Shown here: piece after piece, positions 6,114 to 62,200 of the stretch
How the letters are laid out: every line of letters starts with the position of its first letter
Position numbering within the stretch: position 1 is the stretch's first letter
DNA from: Eledone cirrhosa
Taxonomy: Eukaryota
Assembly (NCBI GenBank): GCA_964016885.1
Contig: OZ024759.1
Location: 7,006,001 to 7,070,000 of the forward strand
DNA length: 64,000 nucleotides
Reading direction: 5' to 3'
Translations under genes and position numbers: made by a program
The notes under the pieces: model-generated
Told to the model about the DNA's origin: nothing
Database searches by the model: none
What the model saw: only the letters and a program-made list of their open reading frames with translations

Positions 6114-6206
6114 CCCATATATATATATATATAATTTAATGATATAAACGTTTGAATATGTGTAATAAGGCCAAAACAATTTAATGTATAATAAACAATA
6201 CAATAT

Positions 6207-6284
6207 AATTACCTCATTACCAGAGGTTTCCCGAATAAGACGAATACAAGAAACGTCCTCATTCGTTCGTCAGACAAGGCAATT
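6207..6284 (-). ncRNA. Type I hammerhead ribozyme
   Basis: 11-bp stem I AAUUGCCUUGU/AUGAGGUAAUU, CUGACGA, long stem II CGAAUGAGGACG/CGUCUUAUUCG, GAAAC-CUCUG-GUA. Confidence 0.85.
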
Positions 6285-6537
6285 TAAAACATAGTGAAAT
6301 ATTTGAAAAATCTCCTCAAGAAAGGCAAAAGTTTAACGGGCAAAAAAATATATAAATAAAAGTAATGCAAGAGATATATAAAAATAAAATAAGGAAATAT
6401 AGTAAGGGTATGTGTATAAATGTGTGTATATTCACTCACAAATGTACATATGTGTGTATGTACAAATGGATGTGTATAGTGAAAAAATGTGTGCGTAAGT
6501 ACATATATGAGGGCAAGCATATCAGTGTATGTGTGAC

Positions 6538-12560: not shown

Positions 12561-13074
12561 GACACTCCCTGAAACATAAGTATTACATGTGTAAAGTTTG
12601 AAAACAGTCGGTTGGGTGTTTCTCGAGTTTTAGGGATTCAAACTCGCACACACACAGACAGACATCCTCAGTTTTATATATATAGATGACCTGTTAACGA
12701 CTACAAAAGCGGGCGGAAATTACCGAAGTCGTTGTTTATGATTTACATAGTAAGCTATGTACCTAAGACGAAGGTGGGCTGTAAATAAAATAAGAATAAG
12801 AAAAAATAGTAATAATAAGTTAACCACAATATACAGTTGTACTTATGTACCATAATTATAAATCGTTATTATAACCACATAAGTTTGGTTGGCTGGACAC
12901 ATACATGAGTGCATATATACATACACACGCATACACATAGCTACATTACATACATATAAATACATATACATTCACACACATAGATGAGTGCATACATACA
13001 TACACACGCATAAACATATGTACATATACATACATAGAAATACATATACTTTTACACACATACAAGAGTGCATA

Positions 13075-13899
13075 CATACATATGATGACATATATACATA
13101 CATATGATGACATATATACATACATATGATGACATATATACATGCATATGATGACATATATACATGCATATGATGACATATATACATGCATATGATGACA
13201 TATATACATACATATGATGACATATATACATACATATGATGACATATATACATACATATGATGACATATATACATACATATGATGACATATATACATACA
13301 TATGATGACATATATACATACATATGATGACATATATACATACATATGATGACATATATACATACATATGATGACATATATACATACATATGATGACATA
13401 CATACATATGATGACATATATACATGCATATGATGACATATATACATACATATGATGACATATATACATGCATATGATGACATATATACATGCATATGAT
13501 GACATATATACATACATATGATGACATATATACATACATATGATGACATATATACATACATATGATGACATATATACATGCATATGATGACATATATACA
13601 TACATATGATGACATATATACATACATATGATGACATATATACATACATATGATGACATATATACATGCATATGATGACATATATACATACATATGATGA
13701 CATATATACATACATATGATGACATATATACATACATATGATGACATATATACATACATATGATGACATATATACATGCATATGATGACATATATACATA
13801 CATATGATGACATATATACATACATATGATGACATATATACATACATATGATGACATATATACATGCATATGATGACATATATACATGCATATGATGAT
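13075..13899. repeat. 22-bp minisatellite (TATGATGACATATATACATRCA), about 37 copies
   Basis: Direct reading; abuts the RTE 3' end. Confidence 0.95.
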
Positions 13900-17752: not shown

Positions 17753-17879
17753 CTAGTAATCCTAGTAATCAGACTAAAACACCTAAATCAGTTAATCTAA
17801 CTCAACCTATATATAATAAATTCACTAATAGTAACTCTCTTAGTAAACATCCTGATACATCGTATAAATATAAAAAACA

Positions 17880-18065
17880 ATATCGAAACCGTAATAGACG
17901 AGGTACTTGGTATAATGCTCCATTTACTCTACAAATTAAAGATAATATCCCTAAAAAAATGTTTACTATCCTAGAGAAAAACTTCCCACCAAACCATAAA
18001 TACCATCAAATTTTAAATAGATCAACTGTAAAATTTTCCTACTCCACTACCAAAAATATACAACA
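17880..18065 (+). mobile_element. Penelope-like element internal fragment
   Basis: TWYNAPFTLQIKDNIPKKMFTILEKNFPPNHKYHQILNRSTVKFSYSTTKNI matches the PLE W.NPP..F...HK...I.NR.T.K.SYS linker pattern. Confidence 0.7.
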
Positions 18066-18767
18066 GAAATTCCTTGTAATTTATATAAGATTGGTATTTC
18101 TCACATCTACCCATGTCCCAAAATTTTACTTTCATTCGTTTTTAACTACCCTCTTTAATAACATCTAATTCTTATTTATCACATTCATACGAATTAATAT
18201 AAATTTATCCCTGTAAGTATACCTATCAATTAATTTAATTTCTTGTTAATAGATCTAGATTCCTTGTGGTTTAAATAAGATTGGTATTTCTCACTAATAC
18301 CTTTACCCTAAAATTTTATTTTCCTTCGTTTTTTATCATTATTCTTTAATAACATCAAATTTTCATGTACACTTCACTGGCTTGACCTCTTTTCATCCCC
18401 AAAGTATTCTTTTCATTCAAAACTGAAGTCTGCACTCCTCTAACTATAAATTATATTTCCACTACCACTATTCTATCAACTTGACCTCTAACTACTTTTC
18501 TATTGGTCAATTCAAAACCTGTTCCCAAACAGACCTTTTATTTTAAATCTTTGTTGTATTTTTACAATAAACAAATCTCATCATTTCTTAAGACAGCATG
18601 TATATGTGAAGGTATGTATATTTCCTCTGATAATTTGTAATATTTTTACATGGATCGATATGATATACATACCAATACACATATATATCCTAGAAACGAT
18701 CGTAAAATGATGAATTTTTTAATATAAGGAACTTGTTCTTTGTTTTTATTTCATTGTTTTAATTAAT

Positions 18768-21081
<2,314 letters not shown>

Positions 21082-21316
21082 TAAACAATTAAGTTAAAGA
21101 TGTACATCCATATCATATATGTATACTGAAATACTAGTATGTATATGAATACACACACGTATACATATGTAGATGTACCAAGTTTTTTTTTCACTGGTCA
21201 CTTTACTGTGAGTGGCCAGCTATTCTGTATGTAAACACACAGACAAACCGGTTTTTAGAGTCATACTGGTTTTTGAGGAAACACCTTTCCTCTATTCTCC
21301 AGAAAGCCAGACAAGG

Positions 21317-21361
21317 AATATTGAACTAGTTTCGTTGTTGTTACAACTCATCAGCAATATT
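21317..21361 (-). ncRNA. Type I hammerhead ribozyme, left-arm array copy (also 21787-21831 and 22257-22301)
   Basis: Exact reverse complement of the right-arm motif; the third copy has only a stem II loop change. Confidence 0.9.
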
Positions 21362-22707
21362 TACCTATCTTCCGGCCTCTCTAGAGAATCGTAAAAGCAC
21401 ATATCGTTATATGCTTTTTCTATGAAAATTAGTAGTGGGCAGACTAATTTGCATAGAGTGTGAGTAAGTACCGGTTCAACGGAGACGATAAAAACAAATA
21501 ACGAAACGAAATTAAATTTCGTTTCGTTTGTAACTCACTTTTGTATGACTGACGCTTAAACAATTAAGTTAAAGATGTACATCCATATATGTATACTGAA
21601 ATACTAGTATGTATATGAATACACACACGTATACATATGTAGATGTACCAAGTTTTTTTTTCACTGGTCACTTTACTGTGAGTGGCCAGCTATTCTGTAT
21701 GTAAACACACAGACAAACCGGTTTTTAGAGTCATACTGGTTTTTGAGGAAACACCTTTCCTCTATTCTCCAGAAAGCCAGACAAGGAATATTGAACTAGT
21801 TTCGTTGTTGTTACAACTCATCAGCAATATTTACCTATCTTCCGGCCTCTCTAGAGAATCGTAAAAGTACATATCGTTATATGCTTTTTCTATGAAAATT
21901 AGTAGTGGGCAGACTAATTTGCATAGAGTGTGAGTAAGTACCGGTTCAACGGAGACGATAAAAACAAATAACGAAACGAAATTAAATTTCGTTTTGTTTG
22001 TAACTCACTTTTGTATGACTGACGCTTAAACAATTAAGTTAAAGATGTACATCCATATATGTATACTGAAATACTAGTATGTATATGAATACACACACGT
22101 ATACATATGTAGATGTACCAAGTTTTTTTTTCACTGGTCACTTTACTGTGAGTGGCCAGCTATTCTGTATGTAAACACACAGACAAACCGGTTTTTAGAG
22201 TCATACTGGTTTTTGAGGAAACACCTTTCCTCTATTCTCCAGAAAGCCAGACAAGGAATATTGAACTAGTTTCGTTGTGGTTACAACTCATCAGCAATAT
22301 TTACCTATCTTCCGGCCTCTCTAGAGAATCGTAAAAGCACATATCGTTATATGCTTTTTCTATGAAAATTAGTAGTGGGCAGACTAATTTGCATAGAGTG
22401 TGAGTAAGTACCGGTTCAACGGAGACGATAAAAACAAATAACGAAACTAAATTAAATTTCGTTTCGTTTGTAACTCACTTTTGTATGACTGACGCTTAAA
22501 CAATTAAGTTAAAGATGTACATCCATATATGTATACTGAAATACTAGTATGTATATGAATACACACACGTATACATATGTAGATGTACCAAGTTTTTTTT
22601 TCACTGGTCACTTTACTGTAATTAGTCTGCCCACTACTAATTTTCATAGAAAAAGCATATAACGATATGTGCTTTTACGATTCTCTAGAGAGGCCGGAAG
22701 ATAGGTA

Positions 22708-22752
22708 AATATTGCTGATGAGTTGTAACAACAACGAAACTAGTTCAATATT
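22708..22752 (+). ncRNA. Type I hammerhead ribozyme, representative array copy (other + copies start at 23178, 23648, 24091, 24560, 25030, 25499, 25969, 26439, 26909, 27379, 27849)
   Basis: Stem I AAUAUUG/CAAUAUU, core CUGAUGA and GAAA, stem II GUUGU/ACAAC, palindromic CUAG stem III; predicted cut after GUU at 22745. Confidence 0.9.
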
Positions 22753-25700
22753 CCTTGTCTGGCTTTCTGGAGAATAGAGGAAAGGTGTTTCCTCAAAAAC
22801 CAGTATGACTCTAAAAACCGGTTTGTCTGTGTGTTTACATACAGAATAGCTGGCCACTCACAGTAAAGTGACCAGTGAAAAAAAAACTTGGTACATCTAC
22901 ATATGTATACGTGTGTGTATTCATATACATACTAGTATTTCAGTATACATATATGGATGTACATCTTTAACTTAATTGTTTAAGCGTCAGTCATACAAAA
23001 GTGAGTTACAAACGAAACGAAATTTAATTTCGTTTCGTTATTTGTTTTTATCGTCTCCGTTGAACCGGTACTTACTCACACTCTATGCAAATTAGTCTGC
23101 CCACTACTAATTTTCATAGAAAAAGCAAATAACGATATGTGCTTTTACGATTCTCTAGAGAGGCCGGAAGATAGGTAAATATTGCTGATGAGTTGTAACA
23201 ACAACGGAACTAGTTCAATATTCCTTGTCTGGCTTTCTGGAGAATAGAGGAAAGGTGTTTCCTCAAAAACCAGTATGACTCTAAAAACCGGTTTGTCTGT
23301 GTGTTTACATACAGAATAGCTGGCCACTCACAGTAAAGTGACCAGTGAAAAAAAAACTTGGTACATCTACATATGTATACGTGTGTGTATTCATATACAT
23401 ACTAGTATTTCAGTATACATATATGGATGTACATCTTTAACTTAATTGTTTAAGCGTCAGTCATACAAAAGTGAGTTACAAACGAAACGAAATTTAATTT
23501 CGTTTCGTTATTTGTTTTTATCGTCTCCGTTGAACCGGTACTTACTCACACTCTATGCAAATTAGTCTGCCCACTACTAATTTTCATAGAAAAAGCATAT
23601 AACGATATGTGCTTTTACGATTCTCTAGAGAGGCCGGAAGATAGGTAAATATTGCTGATGAGTTGTAACAACAACGAAACTAGTTCAATATTCCTTGTCT
23701 GGCTTTCTGGAGAATAGAGGAAAGGTGTTTCCTCAAAAACCAGTATGACTCTAAAAACCGGTTTGTCTGTGTGTTTACATACAGAATAGCTGGCCACTCA
23801 CAGTAAAGTGACCAGTGAAAAAAAAACTTGGTACATCTACATATGTATACGTGTGTGTATTCATATACATACTAGTATTTCAGTATACATATATGGATGT
23901 ACATCTTTAACTTAATTGTTTAAGCGTCAGTCATACAAAAGTGAGTTACAAACGAAACGAAATTTAATTTCGTTTCGTTATTTGTTTTTATCGTCTCCGT
24001 TGAACCGGTACTTACTCACACTCTATGCAAATTAAAAGCATATAACGATATGTGCTTTTACGATTCTCTAGAGAGGCCGGAAGATAGGTAAATATTGCTG
24101 ATGAGTTGTAACAACAACGAAACTAGTTCAATATTCCTTGTCTGGCTTTCTGGAGAATAGAGGAAAGGTGTTTCCTCAAAAACCAGTATGACTCTAAAAA
24201 CCGGTTTGTCTGTGTGTTTACATACAGAATAGCTGGCCACTCACAGTAAAGTGACCAGTGAAAAAAAACTTGGTACATCTACATATGTATACGTGTGTGT
24301 ATTCATATACATACTAGTATTTCAGTATACATATATGGATGTACATCTTTAACTTAATTGTTTAAGCGTCAGTCATACAAAAGTGAGTTACAAACGAAAC
24401 GAAATTTAATTTCGTTTCGTTATTTGTTTTTATCGTCTCCGTTGAACCGGTACTTACTCACACTCTATGCAAATTAGTCTGCCCACTACTAATTTTCATA
24501 GAAAAAGCATATAACGATATGTGCTTTTACGATTCTCTAGAGAGGCCGGAAGATAGGTAAATATTGCTGATGAGTTGTAACAACAACGAAACTAGTTCAA
24601 TATTCCTTGTCTGGCTTTCTGGAGAATAGAGGAAAGGTGTTTCCTCAAAAACCAGTATGACTCTAAAAACCGGTTTGTCTGTGTGTTTACATACAGAATA
24701 GCTGGCCACTCACAGTAAAGTGACCAGTGAAAAAAAAACTTGGTACATCTACATATGTATACGTGTGTGTATTCATATACATACTAGTATTTCAGTATAC
24801 ATATATGGATGTACATCTTTAACTTAATTGTTTAAGCGTCAGTCATACAAAAGTGAGTTACAAACGAAACGAAATTTAATTTCGTTTCGTTATTTGTTTT
24901 TATCGTCTCCGTTGAACCGGTACTTACTCACACTCTATGCAAATTAGTCTGCCCACTACTAATTTTCATAGAAAAAGCATATAACGATATGTGCTTTTAC
25001 GATTCTCTAGAGAGGCCGGAAGATAGGTAAATATTGCTGATGAGTTGTAACAACAACGAAACTAGTTCAATATTCCTTGTCTGGCTTTCTGGAGAATAGA
25101 GGAAAGGTGTTTCCTCAAAAACCAGTATGACTCTAAAAACCGGTTTGTCTGTGTGTTTACATACAGAATAGCTGGCCACTCACAGTAAAGTGACCAGTGA
25201 AAAAAAACTTGGTACATCTACATATGTATACGTGTGTGTATTCATATACATACTAGTATTTCAGTATACATATATGGATGTACATCTTTAACTTAATTGT
25301 TTAAGCGTCAGTCATACAAAAGTGAGTTACAAACGAAACGAAATTTAATTTCGTTTCGTTATTTGTTTTTATCGTCTCCGTTGAACCGGTACTTACTCAC
25401 ACTCTATGCAAATTAGTCTGCCCACTACTAATTTTCATAGAAAAAGCATATAACGATATGTGCTTTTACGATTCTCTAGAGAGGCCGGAAGATAGGTAAA
25501 TATTGCTGATGAGTTGTAACAACAACGAAACTAGTTCAATATTCCTTGTCTGGCTTTCTGGAGAATAGAGGAAAGGTGTTTCCTCAAAAACCAGTATGAC
25601 TCTAAAAACCGGTTTGTCTGTGTGTTTACATACAGAATAGCTGGCCACTCACAGTAAAGTGACCAGTGAAAAAAAAACTTGGTACATCTACATATGTATA

Positions 25701-28184
25701 CGTGTGTGTATTCATATACATACTAGTATTTCAGTATACATATATGGATGTACATCTTTAACTTAATTGTTTAAGCGTCAGTCATACAAAAGTGAGTTAC
25801 AAACGAAACGAAATTTAATTTCGTTTCGTTATTTGTTTTTATCGTCTCCGTTGAACCGGTACTTACTCACACTCTATGCAAATTAGTCTGCCCACTACTA
25901 ATTTTCATAGAAAAAGCATATAACGATATGTGCTTTTACGATTCTCTAGAGAGGCCGGAAGATAGGTAAATATTGCTGATGAGTTGTAACAACAACGAAA
26001 CTAGTTCAATATTCCTTGTCTGGCTTTCTGGAGAATAGAGGAAAGGTGTTTCCTCAAAAACCAGTATGACTCTAAAAACCGGTTTGTCTGTGTGTTTACA
26101 TACAGAATAGCTGGCCACTCACAGTAAAGTGACCAGTGAAAAAAAAACTTGGTACATCTACATATGTATACGTGTGTGTATTCATATACATACTAGTATT
26201 TCAGTATACATATATGGATGTACATCTTTAACTTAATTGTTTAAGCGTCAGTCATACAAAAGTGAGTTACAAACGAAACGAAATTTAATTTCGTTTCGTT
26301 ATTTGTTTTTATCGTCTCCGTTGAACCGGTACTTACTCACACTCTATGCAAATTAGTCTGCCCACTACTAATTTTCATAGAAAAAGCATATAACGATATG
26401 TGCTTTTACGATTCTCTAGAGAGGCCGGAAGATAGGTAAATATTGCTGATGAGTTGTAACAACAACGAAACTAGTTCAATATTCCTTGTCTGGCTTTCTG
26501 GAGAATAGAGGAAAGGTGTTTCCTCAAAAACCAGTATGACTCTAAAAACCGGTTTGTCTGTGTGTTTACATACAGAATAGCTGGCCACTCACAGTAAAGT
26601 GACCAGTGAAAAAAAAACTTGGTACATCTACATATGTATACGTGTGTGTATTCATATACATACTAGTATTTCAGTATACATATATGGATGTACATCTTTA
26701 ACTTAATTGTTTAAGCGTCAGTCATACAAAAGTGAGTTACAAACGAAACGAAATTTAATTTCGTTTCGTTATTTGTTTTTATCGTCTCCGTTGAACCGGT
26801 ACTTACTCACACTCTATGCAAATTAGTCTGCCCACTACTAATTTTCATAGAAAAAGCATATAACGATATGTGCTTTTACGATTCTCTAGAGAGGCCGGAA
26901 GATAGGTAAATATTGCTGATGAGTTGTAACAACAACGAAACTAGTTCAATATTCCTTGTCTGGCTTTCTGGAGAATAGAGGAAAGGTGTTTCCTCAAAAA
27001 CCAGTATGACTCTAAAAACCGGTTTGTCTGTGTGTTTACATACAGAATAGCTGGCCACTCACAGTAAAGTGACCAGTGAAAAAAAAACTTGGTACATCTA
27101 CATATGTATACGTGTGTGTATTCATATACATACTAGTATTTCAGTATACATATATGGATGTACATCTTTAACTTAATTGTTTAAGCGTCAGTCATACAAA
27201 AGTGAGTTACAAACGAAACGAAATTTAATTTCGTTTCGTTATTTGTTTTTATCGTCTCCGTTGAACCGGTACTTACTCACACTCTATGCAAATTAGTCTG
27301 CCCACTACTAATTTTCATAGAAAAAGCATATAACGATATGTGCTTTTACGATTCTCTAGAGAGGCCGGAAGATAGGTAAATATTGCTGATGAGTTGTAAC
27401 AACAACGAAACTAGTTCAATATTCCTTGTCTGGCTTTCTGGAGAATAGAGGAAAGGTGTTTCCTCAAAAACCAGTATGACTCTAAAAACCGGTTTGTCTG
27501 TGTGTTTACATACAGAATAGCTGGCCACTCACAGTAAAGTGACCAGTGAAAAAAAAACTTGGTACATCTACATATGTATACGTGTGTGTATTCATATACA
27601 TACTAGTATTTCAGTATACATATATGGATGTACATCTTTAACTTAATTGTTTAAGCGTCAGTCATACAAAAGTGAGTTACAAACGAAACGAAATTTAATT
27701 TCGTTTCGTTATTTGTTTTTATCGTCTCCGTTGAACCGGTACTTACTCACACTCTATGCAAATTAGTCTGCCCACTACTAATTTTCATAGAAAAAGCATA
27801 TAACGATATGTGCTTTTACGATTCTCTAGAGAGGCCGGAAGATAGGTAAATATTGCTGATGAGTTGTAACAACAACGAAACTAGTTCAATATTCCTTGTC
27901 TGGCTTTCTGGAGAATAGAGGAAAGGTGTTTCCTCAAAAACCAGTATGACTCTAAAAACCGGTTTGTCTGTGTGTTTACATACAGAATAGCTGGCCACTC
28001 ACAGTAAAGTGACCAGTGAAAAAAAACTTGGTACATCTACATATGTATACGTGTGTGTATTCATATACATACTAGTATTTCAGTATACATATATGGATGT
28101 ACATCTTTAACTTAATTGTTTAAGCGTCAGTCATACAAAAGTGAGTTACAAACGAAACGAAATTTAATTTCGTTTCGTTATTTG

Positions 28185-28566
<382 letters not shown>

Positions 28567-28586
28567 TGTATATGTATATATATATG

Positions 28587-28717
<131 letters not shown>

Positions 28718-28742
28718 GTGTATATATATATATATGTATATA

Positions 28743-28779
<37 letters not shown>

Positions 28780-28854
28780 ATATATATATATATGTATATA
28801 TATATGTATATATATATATATGTGTATATATATATGTATATATATATATATGTG

Positions 28855-29062
<208 letters not shown>

Positions 29063-29193
29063 TATGGATGTATATATAATGTATTTTGCAATACACTTTA
29101 TGCTTAATTAAAAGCATTTTGAAGACCGTAAGCTATTGTTTTTTAGAGTAGTGACAAATTCACTTACTTTGATCTCAGCAAACAGGGGAGATA

Positions 29194-29238
29194 AGCCGAC
29201 AAGGCCTTGTTTTGCTTTTGTTGAAGCTTATCAAGGCT
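29194..29238 (-). ncRNA. Hammerhead-like fold, family B, U3-A8 plus A12 core
   Basis: AGCC UUGAUAA GCUU-CAACAA-AAGC AAAA C AAGGCCUU GUC GGCU. Confidence 0.6.
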
Positions 29239-29453
29239 AACTACTCCCACCTGTCTACCGAGATCACTAATGTTATATTCTTATGGAATTCTAGTAAATA
29301 ATCAGGAGCTGATTATGCTGATTAGCTAGAATTTGTCACTACTCTAAAAAACAATAGCTTACGGTCTTCAAAATGCTTTTAATTAAGCATAAAGTGTATT
29401 GCAAAATACATTATATATACATCCATATATATATTGCTATTTCAGAGCTCCAA

Positions 29454-29497
<44 letters not shown>

Positions 29498-29540
29498 TAA
29501 CAGATTAAAGTTTAAGCAAAGAATCGCTGCTTTCACCCTG

Positions 29541-29672
<132 letters not shown>

Positions 29673-29680
29673 CATATATG

Positions 29681-29793
<113 letters not shown>

Positions 29794-29798
29794 GTATA

Positions 29799-29853
<55 letters not shown>

Positions 29854-29864
29854 GTATATATATG

Positions 29865-29929
<65 letters not shown>

Positions 29930-30098
29930 CGAAGGAAATGTGGTAAGGAACCAGGTGGTCCATAACGCACCAAAGTACTCAATACTTGAGGTAGTAGAGT
30001 GGGTAATAGGAACCAGTAAGACCCCGACAGCTGAGCTCAAGCCGTTTCGAATTAGCCGTCGAAACGGCTTGAGCTCAGCTGTCGGGGTCTTACTGGTT

Positions 30099-30139
<41 letters not shown>

Positions 30140-30193
30140 TATATATGTATATATATATATGTATGTATATATATATATGTATATATATATATG

Positions 30194-30374
<181 letters not shown>

Positions 30375-30375
30375 G

Positions 30376-30458
<83 letters not shown>

Positions 30459-30473
30459 GTATATATATATATG

Positions 30474-30544
<71 letters not shown>

Positions 30545-30693
30545 GTATATATATGTATATATATATATATATGTATTAATAAGAGGAATTCCAACTTTGT
30601 CTGATTTATTCGTTTTATTTACAATCCTTTAAAATATATATAATGGTATTATAATGAAATAGTATGATAGAATATTAGATTCTAAGTGTTAAT

Positions 30694-49082: not shown

Positions 49083-52000
49083 AGACTTTGGGAATAAACC
49101 CTGAGGATTAATCCAGACCCAGAGTCCCTACGGCAACCTTGTTCTTGCAACACCTGCCATGCCACCAGTGCCAAATTGTACTGGCCTCTGTCCTTCCCTG
49201 GTGGTGCCACATGAGCAACTGCTGATCTCCCATAAATCAATGCGCAGTCCCTCCAACGTCGCCTCACATTGGCGGCAAAACACAGAAAGCATCAATCTAC
49301 CAGTTATAAGTCTGCACATGATTGGCGTCTGAGCAAGGTATCAAGGGCTGCTTTCGATGCAGGGAGAGGCCATTGTGCTTCACTAGACAGCTACCACCTG
49401 CCTAAAGCTGGGCAGCCCCCAACCAGTTAGGTGCTGTCCCGTCACAGCCCAAGTACTCCAGTGGGTGTGTGGGGCCTAATATACTGAACCTTGGGCTGTA
49501 AACACTGCAATAAGAAAATCAATGAACAAACAATGTAAGAAACTGGTAGTGAGACTTGGATGTTGGAATATAAGGACCCTGACTACTGGTCAACACACTG
49601 ACCCTGACTCCTGGTCAACACACTGACCCTGACTCCTGGTCAACACGCTGACCCTGACTCCTGGTCAACACGCTGACCCTGACTACTGGTCAACACACTG
49701 ACCCTGACTACTGGTCAACACACTGACCCTGACTCCTGGTCAACACGCTGACCCTGACTCCTGGTCAACACACTGACCCTGACTCCTGGTCAACACACTG
49801 ACCCTGACTACTGGTCAACACACTGACCCTGACTCCTGGTCAACACACTGACCCTGACTACTGGTCAACACACTGACCCTGACTACTAGTCAACACACTG
49901 ACCCTGACTACTGGTCAACACACTGACCCTGACTCCTGGTCAACACACTGACCCTGACTACTGGTCAACACACTGACCCTGACTACTAGTCAACACACTG
50001 ACCCTGACTACTGGTCAACACACTGACCCTGACTCCTGGTCAACACACTGACCCTGACTCCTGGTCAACACACTGACCCTGACTCCTGGTCAACACGCTG
50101 ACCCTGACTACTGGTCAACACACTGACCCTGACTACTGGTCAACACACTGACCCTGACTACTAGTCAACACACTGACCCTGACTACTGGTCAACACACTG
50201 ACCCTGACTCCTGGTCAACACGCTGACCCTGACTCCTGGTCAACACGCTGACCCTGACTACTGGTCAACACACTGACCCTGACTCCTGGTCAACACGCTG
50301 ACCCTGACTCCTGGTCAACACGCTGACCCTGACTCCTGGTCAACACGCTGACCCTGACTCCTGGTCAACACGCTGACCCTGACTACTGGTCAACACGCTG
50401 ACCCTGACTCCTGGTCAACACACTGACCCTGACTCCTGGTCAACACGCTGACCCTGACTCCTGGTCAACACGCTGACCCTGACTCCTGGTCAACACGCTG
50501 ACCCTGACTCCTGGTCAACACACTGACCCTGACTCCTGGTCAACACGCTGACCCTGACTCCTGGTCAACACACTGACCCTGACTCCTGGTCAACACGCTG
50601 ACCCTGACTCCTGGTCAACACGCTGACCCTGACTCCTGGTCAACACGCTGACCCTGACTACTGGTCAACACACTGACCCTGACTACTGGTCAACACACTG
50701 ACCCTGACTACTAGTCAACACACTGACCCTGACTACTGGTCGACACACTGACCCTGACTACTGGTCAACACACTGACCCTGACTACTAGTCAACACACTG
50801 ACCCTGACTACTGGTCAACACACTGACCCTGACTACTGGTCAACACACTGACCCTGACTACTGGTCAACACACTGACACTGACTACTGGTCGACACACTG
50901 ACCCTGACTACTGGTCAACACACTGACCCTGACTACTGGTCGACACACTGACCCTGACTACTGGTCGACACACTGACCCTGACTACTGGTCAACACACTG
51001 ACCCTGACTCCTGGTCAACACACTGACCCTGACTCCTGGTCAACACGCTGACCCTGACTCCTGGTCAACACACTGACCCTGACTACTGGTCAACACACTG
51101 ACCCTGACTCCTGGTCAACACGCTGACCCTGACTCCTGGTCAACACGCTGACCCTGACTCCTGGTCAACACACTGACCCTGACTCCTGGTCAACACACTG
51201 ACCCTGACTCCTGGTCAACACGCTGACCCTGACTCCTGGTCAACACGCTGACCCTGACTACTGGTCAACACACTGACCCTGACTACTGGTCAACACACTG
51301 ACCCTGACTACTAGTCTGTCAGAGGATCAGCAACACCTGCAAAACAGCAGACATCAACAATGAACTGCTATGACTTTGAGGGGACATTGCAGTGCTGCAG
51401 GAGACATGGCTCCCAGATCTGGGGGCCCTTCGTGTGATAGAGGAACGGCATAGATGAAGCCAGAGAGCATGGTGTCGGATTACCGTTAGAAACTCACTGT
51501 TGAGTATGGTAGGACTTGGTAGTGACGGGATCCTCTCACTCTAAGTGCACACTTCGGATGGGTCTGTCAGCCTTGTCCGTGCTTATGCCCTAACCCTCTA
51601 TTCCACACAAGATGACAAGGATATGTTTTACCATCAGCCCTCCAGAAAAATACAGGTGATCCCAATTGGTGAACAGCTGGTGCTGCTTGGCGACTTCAAT
51701 GCCAGAGTGGGAGCTGACCACAACTCCTGGACAGGGTGTCTGGGACGTGAATGACAATGAACAAAGACTGCTTGAGCTCTGTATGTTCCATGAACTATGT
51801 GTCACCGACACCTACTTTCAGGCCAAATCTCAGCACAAATTTTCTTGGTGTCATCCTCACTCAGGGCCCTGGCACCAGTTAGATCTGATCCTCAGAAGAC
51901 ACAACCACCTGATAATGTACTCCTGACTCGATCCTTTCACTGCTGACTGTGACACAGATCACTCCCTCGTTTGCTGCAATCACAAAACTCTAATTAAAAA

Positions 52001-54287
52001 AATGATGCACTATGCCAAGCCTCCGGGCAGGCAGCATATCAACACTACTGCGACCCAGCAGTCAGCCAAAGTAGCTGCATTCCACAAGTCAGTGGAAGAT
52101 GCCCTCATTGTAGACCCACCAGAAGATGATGGTCAGCAAAGATGGGATTCTTTCAGGGACATCATACATGACACTGCGTTGAAGACCTTCGGGAAGAAGC
52201 AAACAATGACATATGACTAGTTTGAAGCGAGTGTGGATGAGCTCAATGTGACCATGGAGGAGAAGCGCGCTGTCCTGTTGAAGCACAAGCACCAACCCAC
52301 CAGGGCAACGCTATGAGCATTGTGCAAATGACTACTGGTTACAGCTATGCGAAGGCACCCAGCTGTCATTCGAAACAGGTAATATTTGAGGAATGTATGA
52401 GGGCATCAAGAAAGCCATCGGTCCTGCCCAGAGCAACACAGCTCCACTCAAATCCAGAACATGTGAGGTCATCAAAGGCAAAAGAGAGCAGTTGGAAAGA
52501 TGAGTAGATTATTACTCCAAACACTACGACAGGGAAAACAGTATCTCTAACAACACACTAGACACCGTGGAATACCTACCTGTCATGGAGGAGTTATATG
52601 TATTGCCGACTGCTGGAGAACTGTGCAGAGCTATTGATGGCTTACCTGCTGGGAAGGCACCAGGATCAGACGGCATCCCCCAGAGGTGATCAGGTGTGCA
52701 AAGGAAGAGCTACTTAGTCACTTGTTGAAACTACTGTGTCAGTGCTGGGAAGAGGGAACAATCCTGCAAGACATGAGAGACTGCAACATTGTCACCATCT
52801 ATAAGAAAAAAGGGGACAGAATGTTACTGTAAGTGTTGTTGAGAAGGTCTTCGCCCACGTGGTCTTGAACAGACTACAAAAAATCGCTGAAAATCTCAGT
52901 GTGGTTTCAAGATCAGAACACTCCACTGTCAACATATCTTCTCCCTTCGATAGCTACAGGAGAAGTGCTGAGAGCAAAGGCAACCACTCTACATCACCGT
53001 CATCGACCTCATTCTAAGGCATTCGATCTAGGTTGTAGAGACAGACTGTTCAATAATCTTGCCAAGATTGGTTGTCCTGCAATATTTCTTAGGACAGTCC
53101 AGTTGTTTCGTGTAGATATGAATGGTGTCGTTCAATTTGAGGGCTCTTCTTCGGAGGCATTTAAGATATGCTGTGCTGTGAAGCAGGGCTGCATGCTAGC
53201 CCCTACTCTGTTGGCATCTTTTTCATGGTCATGCTAAACATTCATTTGGAGAGTCAACTGAGGATGTCTACCTCCACACTAGATGGGAAGATGTTTAGTC
53301 TGTCAAGGCTGAAAGAGAAATCCAAGGTTCACCATCAGAGAAATGCTGATTGTGGATGACGCTGCACTGGCAGCGTACCCTGAGAAGCAAATGCAACACC
53401 TCATGAACAAACTCTCGAGGGCCTTTCAGCAATGACCATTAGTCTGAAGAAAACCAATGTACTGGGCCAAAGTGTCAAGCACTCCCCTACCATCACTGTC
53501 AACAACTACGAGCTGGAGGTGGTCCACAAATTCATATACCTTGGCCCCCACCATCACTGACACCCTCTCCCTGAGATCAGCAGGAGAGTTGGACGAGCAA
53601 CCTCCACATTTGCCAGGTTGATGAAGAGAGTCTGGGAGAACAGAAAACTAACCACATACATCAAGATTGATGTCTACAAGGTGTGTATCGTCAGCACACT
53701 ACTTCACAGCAGCGACACATGGAACCTCTACCCAGTCAGGAGTGAGTGGCGTCTCAATGTCTTCTACCTTCGTTGCCCGAGACGCATTTTGCTTATCAAG
53801 TGGACCGACTGGGTCACCAACACTGAAGTCCTTAACCGCACCAAGATACCTAGCATATACACTCTGCTTAAACTGCGTCCTCTACGCTGGCTTCGTCACA
53901 TATATCGTATGCCAGACGGGAGGGTCCCAAAAGACCTACTCTATGGAGAACTGGTACAAGAGCACAAGGACAACCTTGTTTTCATTTCAAAGACGTCTGC
54001 AGGGGGGGATATGAAGTCATTAGACTTGGACACCCAGAGAGGGGAGGAAGTCGCTAATGATCGACCACGATGGATGACTTGAGAGGAGGAGAAATTGAAA
54101 TTTCCCTCTGAGAAAAAGTGAGCTTGAAAGAATAACAAGACATTGGCACAGGAGGAGAGTATCTTCCAATGCCATTGCTGTAGATAGGACTGCTGCTCCT
54201 GTGAGGCCCTGTACAGCAGACACTGCACCACCATCAGCAGCTGACACAAAATTCTTCAGGTGCAGATCCATGGCCTTTCGAGACTGA
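49083..54287 (+). mobile_element. Nearly full-length decayed RTE LINE in intron 2, interrupted by a 25-bp minisatellite
   Basis: LGCWNIRTL, LGDFNARVG, WHQLDL, VKQGCMLAPTL, LRWLRHI.RMPDGRVPKDLLYGEL; many stops and frameshifts. Confidence 0.9.
49575..51316. repeat. 25-bp minisatellite (GACCCTGACTMCTGGTCAACACRCT), about 69 copies
   Basis: Direct reading. Confidence 0.95.
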
Positions 54288-55149: not shown

Positions 55150-55175
55150 GTGAGTCTTTCAAAGTCGACATTGGG

Positions 55176-56120
55176 GTATTTAGCATCTTAGACTAGCTCT
55201 ACAATGTGTACCTGTGTATTTAGCACCCTAGACTAGCTCTACAATGTGTACCTGTGTATTTAGCACCCTAGACTAGCTCTACAATGTGTACCTGGGTATT
55301 TAACACCCTAGACTAGCTCTACAATGTGTACCTGTGTATTTAGCACCCTAGACTAGCTCTACAATGTGTACCTGGGTATTTAACACCCTAGAATAGCTCT
55401 ACAATGTGTACCTGGGTATTTAACACCCTAGACTAGCTCTACAATGTGTACCTGGGTATTTAGCACACTAGACTAGCTCTACAATGTGTACTGGGGTATT
55501 TAACACCCTAGAATAGCTCTACAATGTGTACTGGGTATTTAGCACCCTAGACTAGCTCTACGATGTGTACTGGGGTATTTAACACCCTAGAATAGCTCTA
55601 CGATGTGTACCTGGGTATTTGGCACACTAGACTAGCTCTACAATGTGTACCTGGGTATTTAGCACCCTAGACTAGCTCTACAATGTGTACCTGGATATTT
55701 AGCACCCTAGACTAGCTCTACAATGTGTACCTGGGTATTTAGCACCCTAGACTAGCTCTACAATGTGTACCTGGATATTTAGCACCCTAGACTAGCTCTA
55801 CGATGTGTACCTGGGTATTTAGCACCCTAGACTAGCTCTACAATGTGTACTGGGTATTTAGCACACTAGACTAGCTCTACAATGTGTACCTGGATATTTA
55901 GCACACTAGACTAGCTCTACAATGTGTACCTGGGTATTTAGCACCCTAGACTAGCTCTACAATGTGTACCTGGATATTTAGCACCCTAGACTAGCTCTAC
56001 AATGTGTACCTGGATATTTAGCACCCTAGACTAGCTCTACAATGTGTACCTGGATATTTAGCACACTAGACTAGCTCTACAATGTGTACCTGGGTATTTA
56101 GCACCCTAGACTAGCTCTAC
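55176..56120. repeat. 40-bp minisatellite, about 23 copies
   Basis: Unit GTATTTAGCACCCTAGACTAGCTCTACAATGTGTACCTGG; starts 26 bp after the exon 3 donor. Confidence 0.95.
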
Positions 56121-59974: not shown

Positions 59975-62200
59975 CTGCCACCGTCAACCGCCACCGTCAA
60001 CCGCCACGTCAACCGCCACCGTCAACCGCCACCGTCAACCGCCACCGTCAACCGCCACCGTCAACCGCCACCGTCAACCGCCACCGTCAACCGCCACCGT
60101 TAACTACCACCGTCAACCACCACCGTCACCTACCACCGTCAACCACCACCGTCAACTACCACACCACCGTCAACCATCGCCGTCACCTACCACCGTCAAC
60201 CCCCGCCGTCAACCACCACCGTCATCCACCACCGTCAACCACCACCGTCACCTACCACCGTCAACCACCGCCGTCAACCACCACCGTCATCCACCACCGT
60301 CAACCACCACCGTCACCTACCACCGTCAACCACCACCGTCAACCACCACCGTCAACCACCACCGTCTCCTACCACCGTCACCTACCACCGTCATCCACCA
60401 CCGTCAACCACCACCGTCACCTACCACCGTCAACCACCACCGTCAACCACCCCCGTCACCTACCACCGTCACCTACCACCGTCATCCACCACCGTCAACC
60501 ACCACCGTCAACCACCACCGTCAACCACCACCGTCACCTACCACCGTCAACCACCACCGTCAACCACCACCGTCAACCACCACCGTCAACCAACACCGTC
60601 ACCTACCACCGTCAACCACCACCGTCAACCACCACCGTCAACTACCACCGTCACCTACCACCGTCAACCACCACCGTCAACCACCACCGTCACCTACCAC
60701 CGTCACCTACCACCGTCATCTACCACCGTCAACCACCACCGTCAACCACCACCGTCAACCACCACCGTCACCTACCACCGTCAACAACCACCGTCACCTA
60801 CCACCGTCAACCACCACCGTCACCTACCACCGTCAACCACCACCGTCAACCACCACCGTCAACCACCACCGTCAACAACCACCGTCACCTACCACCGTCA
60901 ACCACCACCGTCAACCACAACCGTCAACGACCAACAATAACCACCACCGTCACCTACCACCGTCACCTACCACCATCAACCACCACCGTCAACCACCACC
61001 GTCAACCACCACCGTCAACCACCACCGTCACCTACCACCGTCAACCACCACCGTCAACCACCACCGTCAACCACCACCGTCAACCACCACCGTCAACCAC
61101 CACCGTCAACCACCACCGTCAACCACCACCGTCAACCACCACCGTCACCTACCACCGTCAACCACCACCGTCAACCACCACCGTCAACCACCACCGTCAA
61201 CCAACACCGTCACCTACCACCGTCAACCACCACCGTCAACCACCACCGTCAACTACCACCGTCACCTACCACCGTCAACCACCACCGTCAACCACCACCG
61301 TCACCTACCACCGTCACCTACCACCGTCATCTACCACCGTCAACCACCACCGTCAACCACCACCGTCAACCACCACCGTCACCTACCACCGTCAACAACC
61401 ACCGTCACCTACCACCGTCAACCACCACCGTCACCTACCACCGTCAACCACCACCGTCAACCACCACCGTCAACCACCACCGTCAACAACCACCGTCACC
61501 TACCACCGTCAACCACCACCGTCAACCACAACCGTCAACGACCAACAACAACCACCACCGTCACCTACCACCGTCACCTACCACCGTCAACCACCACCGT
61601 CAACCACCACCGTCAACCACCACCGTCAACCACCACCGTCACCTACCATCGCTAACCACCACCGTCAACCACCACCGTGAACCACCACCGTGAACCACCA
61701 CCGTCACCTACCACCGTCAACCACCACCGTCAACCACTATCGTCATCACCACCGTCATCCACCACCATCAACCACCACCGTCAACCACCACCGTCAACCA
61801 CCACCGTCAACCACCACCGTCACCTACCACCGTCAACCACCACCGTCAACCACCACCGTCACCTACCACCGTCAACCACCACCGTCAACCACCACCGTCA
61901 ACCACCACCGTCAACCACCACCGTCAACCACCACCGTCAACCACTATCGTCATCACCACCGTCATCCACCACCATCAACCACCACCGTCAACCACCACCG
62001 TCAACCACCACCGTCAACCACCACCGTCACCTACCACCGTCAACCACCACCGTCAACCACCACCGTCAACCACCACCGTCAACCACCACCGTCAACCACC
62101 ACCGTCAACCACCACCGTCAACCACCACCGTCAACCACCACCGTCAACCACCACCGTCACCTACCACCGTCAACCACCACCGTCAACCACCACCACCACT
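59975..62200. repeat. 12-bp minisatellite (ACCACCGTCAMC) directly upstream of exon 4
   Basis: Direct reading; variants CCT, ATC and ACA; higher-order duplication visible. Confidence 0.95.

Follow-up and report, generated by a model that had tools for sequence, protein, structure and literature searches.

The window analyzed here is a 64,000-bp stretch of the Eledone cirrhosa genome (assembly GCA_964016885.1, contig OZ024759.1, positions 7,006,001 to 7,070,000 of the forward strand), and it contains a tandem array of a 470-bp unit inserted in a (TA)n microsatellite. Judged by its sequence, the unit is the monomer of a non-coding type I hammerhead non-LTR retrozyme (LTR, long terminal repeat), a kind of element that is already known. 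A sequence-only reading of the same stretch had proposed that the monomer folds almost entirely into hairpins, that its G-U pairs mostly favor the ribozyme strand and that selection acted on a viroid-like branched RNA rather than on DNA. We analyzed the first unit of the plus arm (22620–23090) together with its relatives elsewhere in the genome. Both the hairpins and the bias between strands are real, and there is good support for an RNA phase of the element. The stems are under constraint, and the excess of G-U pairs on the ribozyme strand probably comes for the most part from A-to-I editing by ADAR that was fixed by reverse transcription and then tolerated. The features of the locus are listed in Table 1.

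Table 1. Features of the retrozyme insertion and of its first plus-arm unit (window positions; energies in kcal/mol).
Feature	Positions	Strand	Remarks
Whole insertion	21082–28191		Two arms of the 470-bp monomer, tails outward; hammerhead copies number 15 (3 on −, 12 on +)
Inverted arm	21082–22619	−	~3.3 units; 3′ end (21082) at monomer position 237
Main arm	22620–28191	+	~11.9 units; 3′ end (28191) at monomer position 306; one unit with a 27-bp deletion
(TA)n target microsatellite, left	18841–21083
(TA)n target microsatellite, right	28189–30576
Monomer delimited by the predicted cleavage site	22746–23215	+	Position 1 = 22746
Type I hammerhead	22697–22768	+	Rfam RF02275, E = 6.5e-08, 37.7 bits, under the gathering score of 52
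Hammerhead stem I	22708–14 / 22746–52	+	AAUAUUG / CAAUAUU
Hammerhead core and stem II	22715–21, 22722–35, 22736–38	+	CUGAUGA, stem II, GAA
Hammerhead stem III	22739–44	+	Palindromic ACUAGU; predicted cleavage after GUU (22745)
Hairpin	22620–22642	+	Holds the recurrent A>G site 22624 (UAG; monomer 349)
Hairpin	22651–22676	+	11 bp, one U-G pair; −9.3 on +, −5.9 on −
Extended stem I	22681–22774	+	−34.0 on +, −19.5 on −; G-U pairs 22760-22696, 22765-22690, 22769-22686
Hairpin	22777–22794	+	7 bp, perfect; −7.5 on +, −6.6 on −
Long-range helix closing the central domain	22803–10 / 22989–96	+	Two pairs changed on both sides between families
CTGGCCACT hairpin	22851–22876	+	−6.3 on +, −12.2 on −; minus strand stabler in the window's subfamily
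Long TA-rich hairpin	22891–22962	+	−28.7 on +, −22.4 on −
'Tail' separating the two fixed 3′ ends	22977–23051	+	Monomer 232/237 to 306; contains the 13-bp hairpin
Hairpin	23011–23039	+	13 bp, perfect; −13.2 on both strands

The hammerhead was recovered at E-value level; the Rfam search at the gathering threshold gave 0 matches, and the microRNA and small-RNA matches seen at E-value level were set aside as generic hairpins far under their cut-offs. Hammerhead copies are spaced 443–470 bp apart in the array, and no hammerhead was found on the minus strand of the unit, so that the ribozyme lies on one strand only. Neither a stop-free frame of 150 aa nor the reverse transcriptase (RT) and GIY-YIG open reading frame (ORF) of an autonomous Penelope-like element (PLE) was found in the array, whose GC content is 0.34–0.35, below 50%. 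Genome-wide, the hammerhead motif gave 23,418 matches in 3.0 Gb and none in the reversed control, and the monomer gave 269 matches among 38 scored candidates, with 99–100% identical arrays on at least 14 contigs. The loci that we fetched comprise subfamilies A1 (that of the window), A1o, A2 and A3, which are ~90–97% identical, and families B and C, which share ~63% identity with A. The predicted cleavage triplet is GUU in the young subfamily of the window, GUC in A2 and A3 and GUA in B and C, and one unit of the array reads GGAA where the hammerhead core otherwise has its conserved GAAA (23207). Isolated CUGAUGA...GAAA motifs at 54284, 3480(−), 5267(−) and 6688(−) of the window resemble minimal hammerheads of other families. 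Near-identical monomers were also seen at low depth in runs X4, X5 and X6, labelled as three other organisms, in contigs joining end to start; they were not used as evidence.

On either strand, the fold of the unit is much more stable than those of dinucleotide shuffles. Its linear fold reaches −151.5 kcal/mol (z = −10.0) on the plus strand and −127.2 kcal/mol (z = −6.2) on the minus strand, stabilities found in 0 of 100 shuffles each, and the circular folds are at −151.1 and −125.8 kcal/mol, respectively. To speak of almost complete pairing was an overstatement: 66% of the bases are paired in the circular minimum free energy (MFE) structure, compared to 59% ± 3% in 30 shuffles (maximum 68%), and the fold signal is one of long, stable helices, not of paired fraction. 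All five hairpins named by the sequence-only reading are present, as is the CTGGCCACT hairpin, which it had correctly singled out as an exception to the preference of wobble pairs for the hammerhead strand. The exception is not a single one, a C/A mismatch at 22900/22953 being a G-U pair on the minus strand, and the long-range helix at 22803–10/22989–96 had been overlooked. The proposed stem I register AGAUAGG/CCUUGUCU is neither in the MFE structure nor kept by related families, in which CCU/(A,G)GG is retained and followed by an internal loop and a further helix.

The claim that G-U pairs favor the ribozyme strand holds for the energy gap and not for the count in a single unit, which is 11 on the plus strand and 5 on the minus strand (binomial P = 0.21, not significant). 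The strands are −25.3 kcal/mol apart; none of 40 shuffles and one of 60 randomized flips of the 16 wobble sites equalled this gap. Turning those sites into Watson-Crick pairs abolishes it (−170.7 versus −169.5 kcal/mol), and the gap is therefore due to the wobbles; with DNA parameters the strands are nearly equal (−72.9 versus −69.9, a gap of ~3 kcal/mol), indicating that it is specific to RNA. In the majority states of A1, A2, B and C, the plus strand is stabler in all four, by 17–36 kcal/mol, although the gap of one old C copy was not beyond shuffles and that of one A2 copy was equalled by 3 of 40. Six of the window's 11 wobbles have a Watson-Crick counterpart in some relative, four differing on the purine side (one, at 22690, is C-G in A2) and two on the pyrimidine side; the U-G pair 22898-22955 of the TA-rich hairpin is U-A in A2 and A3.

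Comparison of diverged families shows that the stems are under constraint. Among the 122 confident pairs of the window, 24 have changes on both sides when 20 monomers are aligned by sequence only, a number reached by 1 of 500 shuffles, while slid controls gave 5–8. The clearest two-sided changes are in stem I, stem II and the long-range helix; pair counts are low in the extended stem I because the alignment misaligns it between A and B/C. When family majority states were compared to simulated random placement, A1 and C differed by 20 compensatory pairs (7.5 expected) and 19 broken pairs (45.2 expected), A1 and B by 13 compensatory pairs (8.3 expected, P = 0.05), and A1 and A2 by 4 broken pairs (14.4 expected). 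The covariation looked for among divergent family members is thus there, and it shows hairpins, not polarity, since Watson-Crick covariation appears on the minus strand too. Nor can it separate RNA from DNA, as would matter if the element were a plain DNA satellite whose inverted repeats arose and were perfected by template switching or conversion, with no RNA phase. Both strands and single-stranded DNA fold well, and a microsatellite readily yields TA-rich hairpins. Such a satellite is nonetheless very improbable: the 99–100% identical insertions are dispersed over at least 14 contigs with fixed ends, the catalytic core is conserved, and variants common to a whole array are strand-biased whereas those of single units are symmetric.

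This last contrast comes from a split of the variants found in 1,040 units or fragments at 177 loci. Variants common to a whole insertion were taken as present in the template, and variants in a single unit as later DNA change or error. Among low-frequency array-wide variants (n = 176), A>G outnumbers T>C by 49 to 23 (P = 0.001), whereas single-unit variants (n = 666) show 62 A>G and 82 T>C (Fisher P = 0.0006 for the contrast) and are most frequently C>T and G>A (111 and 105). The A>G bias is confined to variants common to the whole insertion: template-level variants are strand-asymmetric and post-insertion variants are not. Outgroup polarization resolved 176 of 213 variants (37 were dropped) and left 51 A>G against 24 T>C. 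Within stems, 33 polarized changes turn A-U into G-U compared to 7 mirror changes of A-U to A-C, while only 4 turn G-C into G-U compared to 9 mirror changes of G-C to A-C. The A>G excess persists outside the TA hairpin (36 versus 18) and among one-locus variants (32 versus 16), and in the youngest subfamilies, A1 and A2, it is 9 to 0. Rate matrices under UNREST were set aside, as they depend on an arbitrary root, and a variant listing at 1% share held only 6 variants and added nothing.

These counts bear on the idea that selection alone made the bias, mutation being symmetric and only those changes surviving in a replicating RNA that keep ribozyme-strand stems paired through G-U. Broken pairs are indeed depleted between families, the ribozyme strand is the stabler one in four of four, and A>G opposite U is the most frequent template-level change. 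However, tolerance would raise both routes to G-U, and C>T opposite G, expected to be equally favored, is not raised despite being common in single units; selection alone does not fit for this reason, and neither a 5′ U nor a UAG context is predicted by it. We consider it distinctly unlikely. The earlier inference of selection on RNA rather than DNA was hence right as to RNA, given the near equality of the strands with DNA parameters, the one-strand ribozyme and the asymmetric template-level variants, and also as to constraint on the helices, but the G-U bias is poor evidence of selection.

The sequence context of the A>G sites is consistent with ADAR editing instead. A 5′ U precedes 29 of 51 sites (background 36%, P = 0.0015) and UAG occurs at 7 of 51 (P = 0.007); both are preferences of ADAR. 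Site 349 of the monomer, a UAG at 22624 of the window, has changed from A to G in 4 of 4 A subfamilies, and a triple change, A340G/A344G/A345G, is linked in three loci within 6 nt of one helix; recurrent sites are at monomer 98 and 340–349. Genes with an A_deamin domain are present at 4 places in the genome.

Several results weigh against editing, or against one or another part of the reading built on it. Depletion of a 5′ G at A>G sites is not significant (4 of 51, P = 0.09). Tree parsimony gives a weaker excess (24 A>G versus 14 T>C; 11 versus 9 in family A alone), subfamily A1o is at parity (11 versus 11), and fixed differences number 16 A/G and 16 C/T between A1 and A2 and 26 and 20 between B and C, so that the bias is barely visible over long periods. 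On the ribozyme strand, G>A is commoner than C>T (30 versus 14, P = 0.02), mostly outside CpG; ADAR does not account for this excess, which could be due to wobble errors of the RT or to deamination of complementary DNA (cDNA). As for the stems, A1 and A2 differ by only 1 compensatory pair (0.7 expected), covariation is carried by only three deep lineages, and array-wide transversions are not significantly depleted in stems (21 paired and 22 unpaired, versus 138 and 104; P = 0.32). The GUU of the window's subfamily is a weak cleavage triplet, and transcription, cleavage and editing are all deduced from genomic copies.

Because of the G>A excess, the weak tree counts, the parity of A1o and the fixed differences, a purine bias arising without ADAR stays a live rival. 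It would stem from transcription or reverse-transcription errors by which both A>G and G>A rise on the RNA strand, or, for G>A, from cytidine deamination in first-strand cDNA. Both purine transitions are up (51 A>G and 30 G>A, versus 24 T>C and 14 C>T), and tree counts give 45 purine versus 26 pyrimidine transitions. The recurrent change of one UAG site in four subfamilies, the linked triple in one helix and the enrichment of a 5′ U are not what it would lead us to expect, and we hold it to be unlikely, if worth keeping in view. ADAR editing fixed by reverse transcription thus seems the probable main source of the wobbles. We found no report of editing scars or of a G-U strand bias in retrozymes in a literature search that left most subscription papers and supplements outside; in the part of PMC7229834 available to us, RNA editing is listed merely as one possible cause of heterogeneity in retrozyme RNA.

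The layout of the insertions points to how such a template may be copied. The 118 A-family loci comprise 76 two-armed tail-out insertions, 41 in a single orientation and 1 compound. Of the 76 two-armed insertions, 64 have an outer end of the monomer 232–238 type on one side and an outer end at 306 on the other, each running into (TA)n; families B and C have equivalent ends 57–59 nt apart, and loose TA ends are seen at both end sites in contigs of run X1. No target-site duplication is readable since both flanks are (TA)n. In 43 two-orientation A1/A2 loci, 25 variants (17 loci) are carried by all units of the two arms, and no variant is limited to a single arm. This suggests that the two arms were copied from one template; since a homogeneous source array would lead to the same pattern, a circle is something we infer rather than observe.

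At one locus (L053:4394-6910; G000:C3:124.40 Mb), family A arms switch to family B sequence (63% identical) just before the distal 3′ end, both outer ends being at the proximal site; this points to a switch of template from one family to the other within a single complex. Another array (L038:3174-6876) has units of 470, 469, 443, 470, 469, 443, 469 and 470 bp; a 27-bp-deleted unit at every third place is expected from a trimeric template or from local duplication. The 443-bp unit occurs once in the array of the window (23686–24128). Unrelated homogeneous minisatellites of period 22, 25, 40 and 13 lie at 13072–13898, 49575–51316, 55174–56120 and 59978–62194, respectively.

A young family of the genome (L283–L292, e.g. 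G000:C5:96.82 Mb), which we take to be a PLE from its RT motifs and its layout, has many intact 719-aa ORFs at 95–98% identity, a hammerhead-like motif in its terminal repeat and a tail of ~78 nt. In (TA)n, its insertions share the retrozyme's layout of two arms and two ends. Pfam named 1 of 8 PLE-like ORFs (GIY-YIG) and did not recognize the 719-aa family. Among 31 loci of three PLE-like families, no homology of a pseudo-LTR (pLTR) to the retrozyme was found save in neighboring retrozyme fragments, a point against Penelope-type mobilization; the retrozyme has no sequence in common with any of the three families. An ACTTA motif before PLE and retrozyme ends was dropped, as it precedes different ends. 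Fragments akin to the 719-aa family lie in the window at 2310–2669, 6179–6516 and 17878–18075 (tblastn E = 6e-32 and 5e-12; blastn 75% over 344 bp).

Putting these observations together, we regard the following course as likely. Arrays would be transcribed, hammerheads would pair through their palindromic stem III and cut out monomers, and these would be ligated into circles. Host ADAR would then edit A to I in the predicted RNA stems. A Penelope-like RT/endonuclease would nick both strands in (TA)n, and copying of one template would begin at two internal start sites and probably run round a circle, with reverse transcription fixing the edits as A>G. Changes of A-U to G-U would persist as the stems still pair, and stem-breaking changes would be purged.

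A further-reaching reading, which we put forward tentatively and at somewhat less than even confidence, is that a Penelope enzyme copies a small circle of ribozyme RNA, edited by host ADAR, over and over from the two sides of a single DNA break, the edits becoming heritable wobbles in the genome. If this is true, editing is the element's strand-specific mutator, and the G-U strand bias in such repeats is a fossil record of editing, not a sign of selection. Such a bias can readily be mistaken for the work of selection on RNA folding; mutation seems to account for most of it here, which calls for caution with any reverse-transcribed structured repeat in animals. The copies also offer genomic evidence for an RNA intermediate and for Penelope-type mobilization, proposed but not shown in the accessible parts of the retrozyme papers cited here, and they provide an in vitro test with a substrate, two start sites and a target. 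Self-paired retrozyme monomers being already known, the hairpins by themselves are unremarkable.

Hammerhead viroids and viroid-like satellite RNAs are small, branched and hammerhead-bearing, as is the element described here, which is probably circular like them. Its size, branched fold and hammerhead, reminiscent of Avsunviroidae-type RNAs, could be thought to indicate a true viroid-like replicon copied from RNA to RNA and only occasionally captured by the genome. RNA-RNA replication is also named as a possible source of circular RNA heterogeneity in PMC7229834, as far as its text was accessible. But hammerhead viroids have ribozymes in both polarities and replicate without a DNA phase, whereas this element has no hammerhead on its minus strand, which folds worse, shows no sign of RNA-RNA replication, and occurs in the genome more than 23,000 times, in copies that have retrotransposon ends. 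Such a replicon is exceedingly improbable, and 'viroid-like' applies only in the sense in which retrozyme circular RNAs are so described in the available text of that paper, the present element being genomic, reverse-transcribed and of one ribozyme polarity.

The closest counterparts are metazoan non-LTR retrozymes which, as described in the accessible portion of Cervera and de la Pena 2020 (PMC7229834), are likewise non-coding tandem repeats with one type I hammerhead per unit, a GC content below 50%, thousands of copies and a highly self-paired circular RNA, reported for them and predicted here; PLEs accompany both those elements and this one in the genome. The 470-nt unit exceeds the 170–400 nt range given there and falls inside the 51–972 bp range given in the available part of Li, Clavereau and Pollet 2026 (bioRxiv 10.64898/2026.07.22.740005). 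The one-pair stem III under a palindromic tetraloop is that of axolotl HHR_Amex1, which cleaves as dimers, dimer-dependent cleavage being reported for such hammerheads in the same portion of PMC7229834. The accessible parts of the retrozyme papers describe no inverted two-arm insertions whose ends are fixed, no (TA)n targeting and no A>G scars in genomic copies, and we found no report of PLE-type two-armed ends in retrozymes, most subscription papers lying outside the search. PLEs themselves, in the available parts of the papers concerned, have partial tandems, an inverted 5′-truncated copy, a tail at one end only, AT-rich or (TA)n targets and two internal RT starts, with both strands cut and extended (Craig et al. 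2021, PMC8557442; Frangieh et al. 2024, PMC11167929). The retrozyme differs from them in lacking an ORF, in having both arms built as multimers of a small unit and in a tail of 57–74 nt compared to the 30–40 bp reported there for PLEs, and it shares with them the inverted arm, the one-end tail, the (TA)n targets and the two fixed ends.

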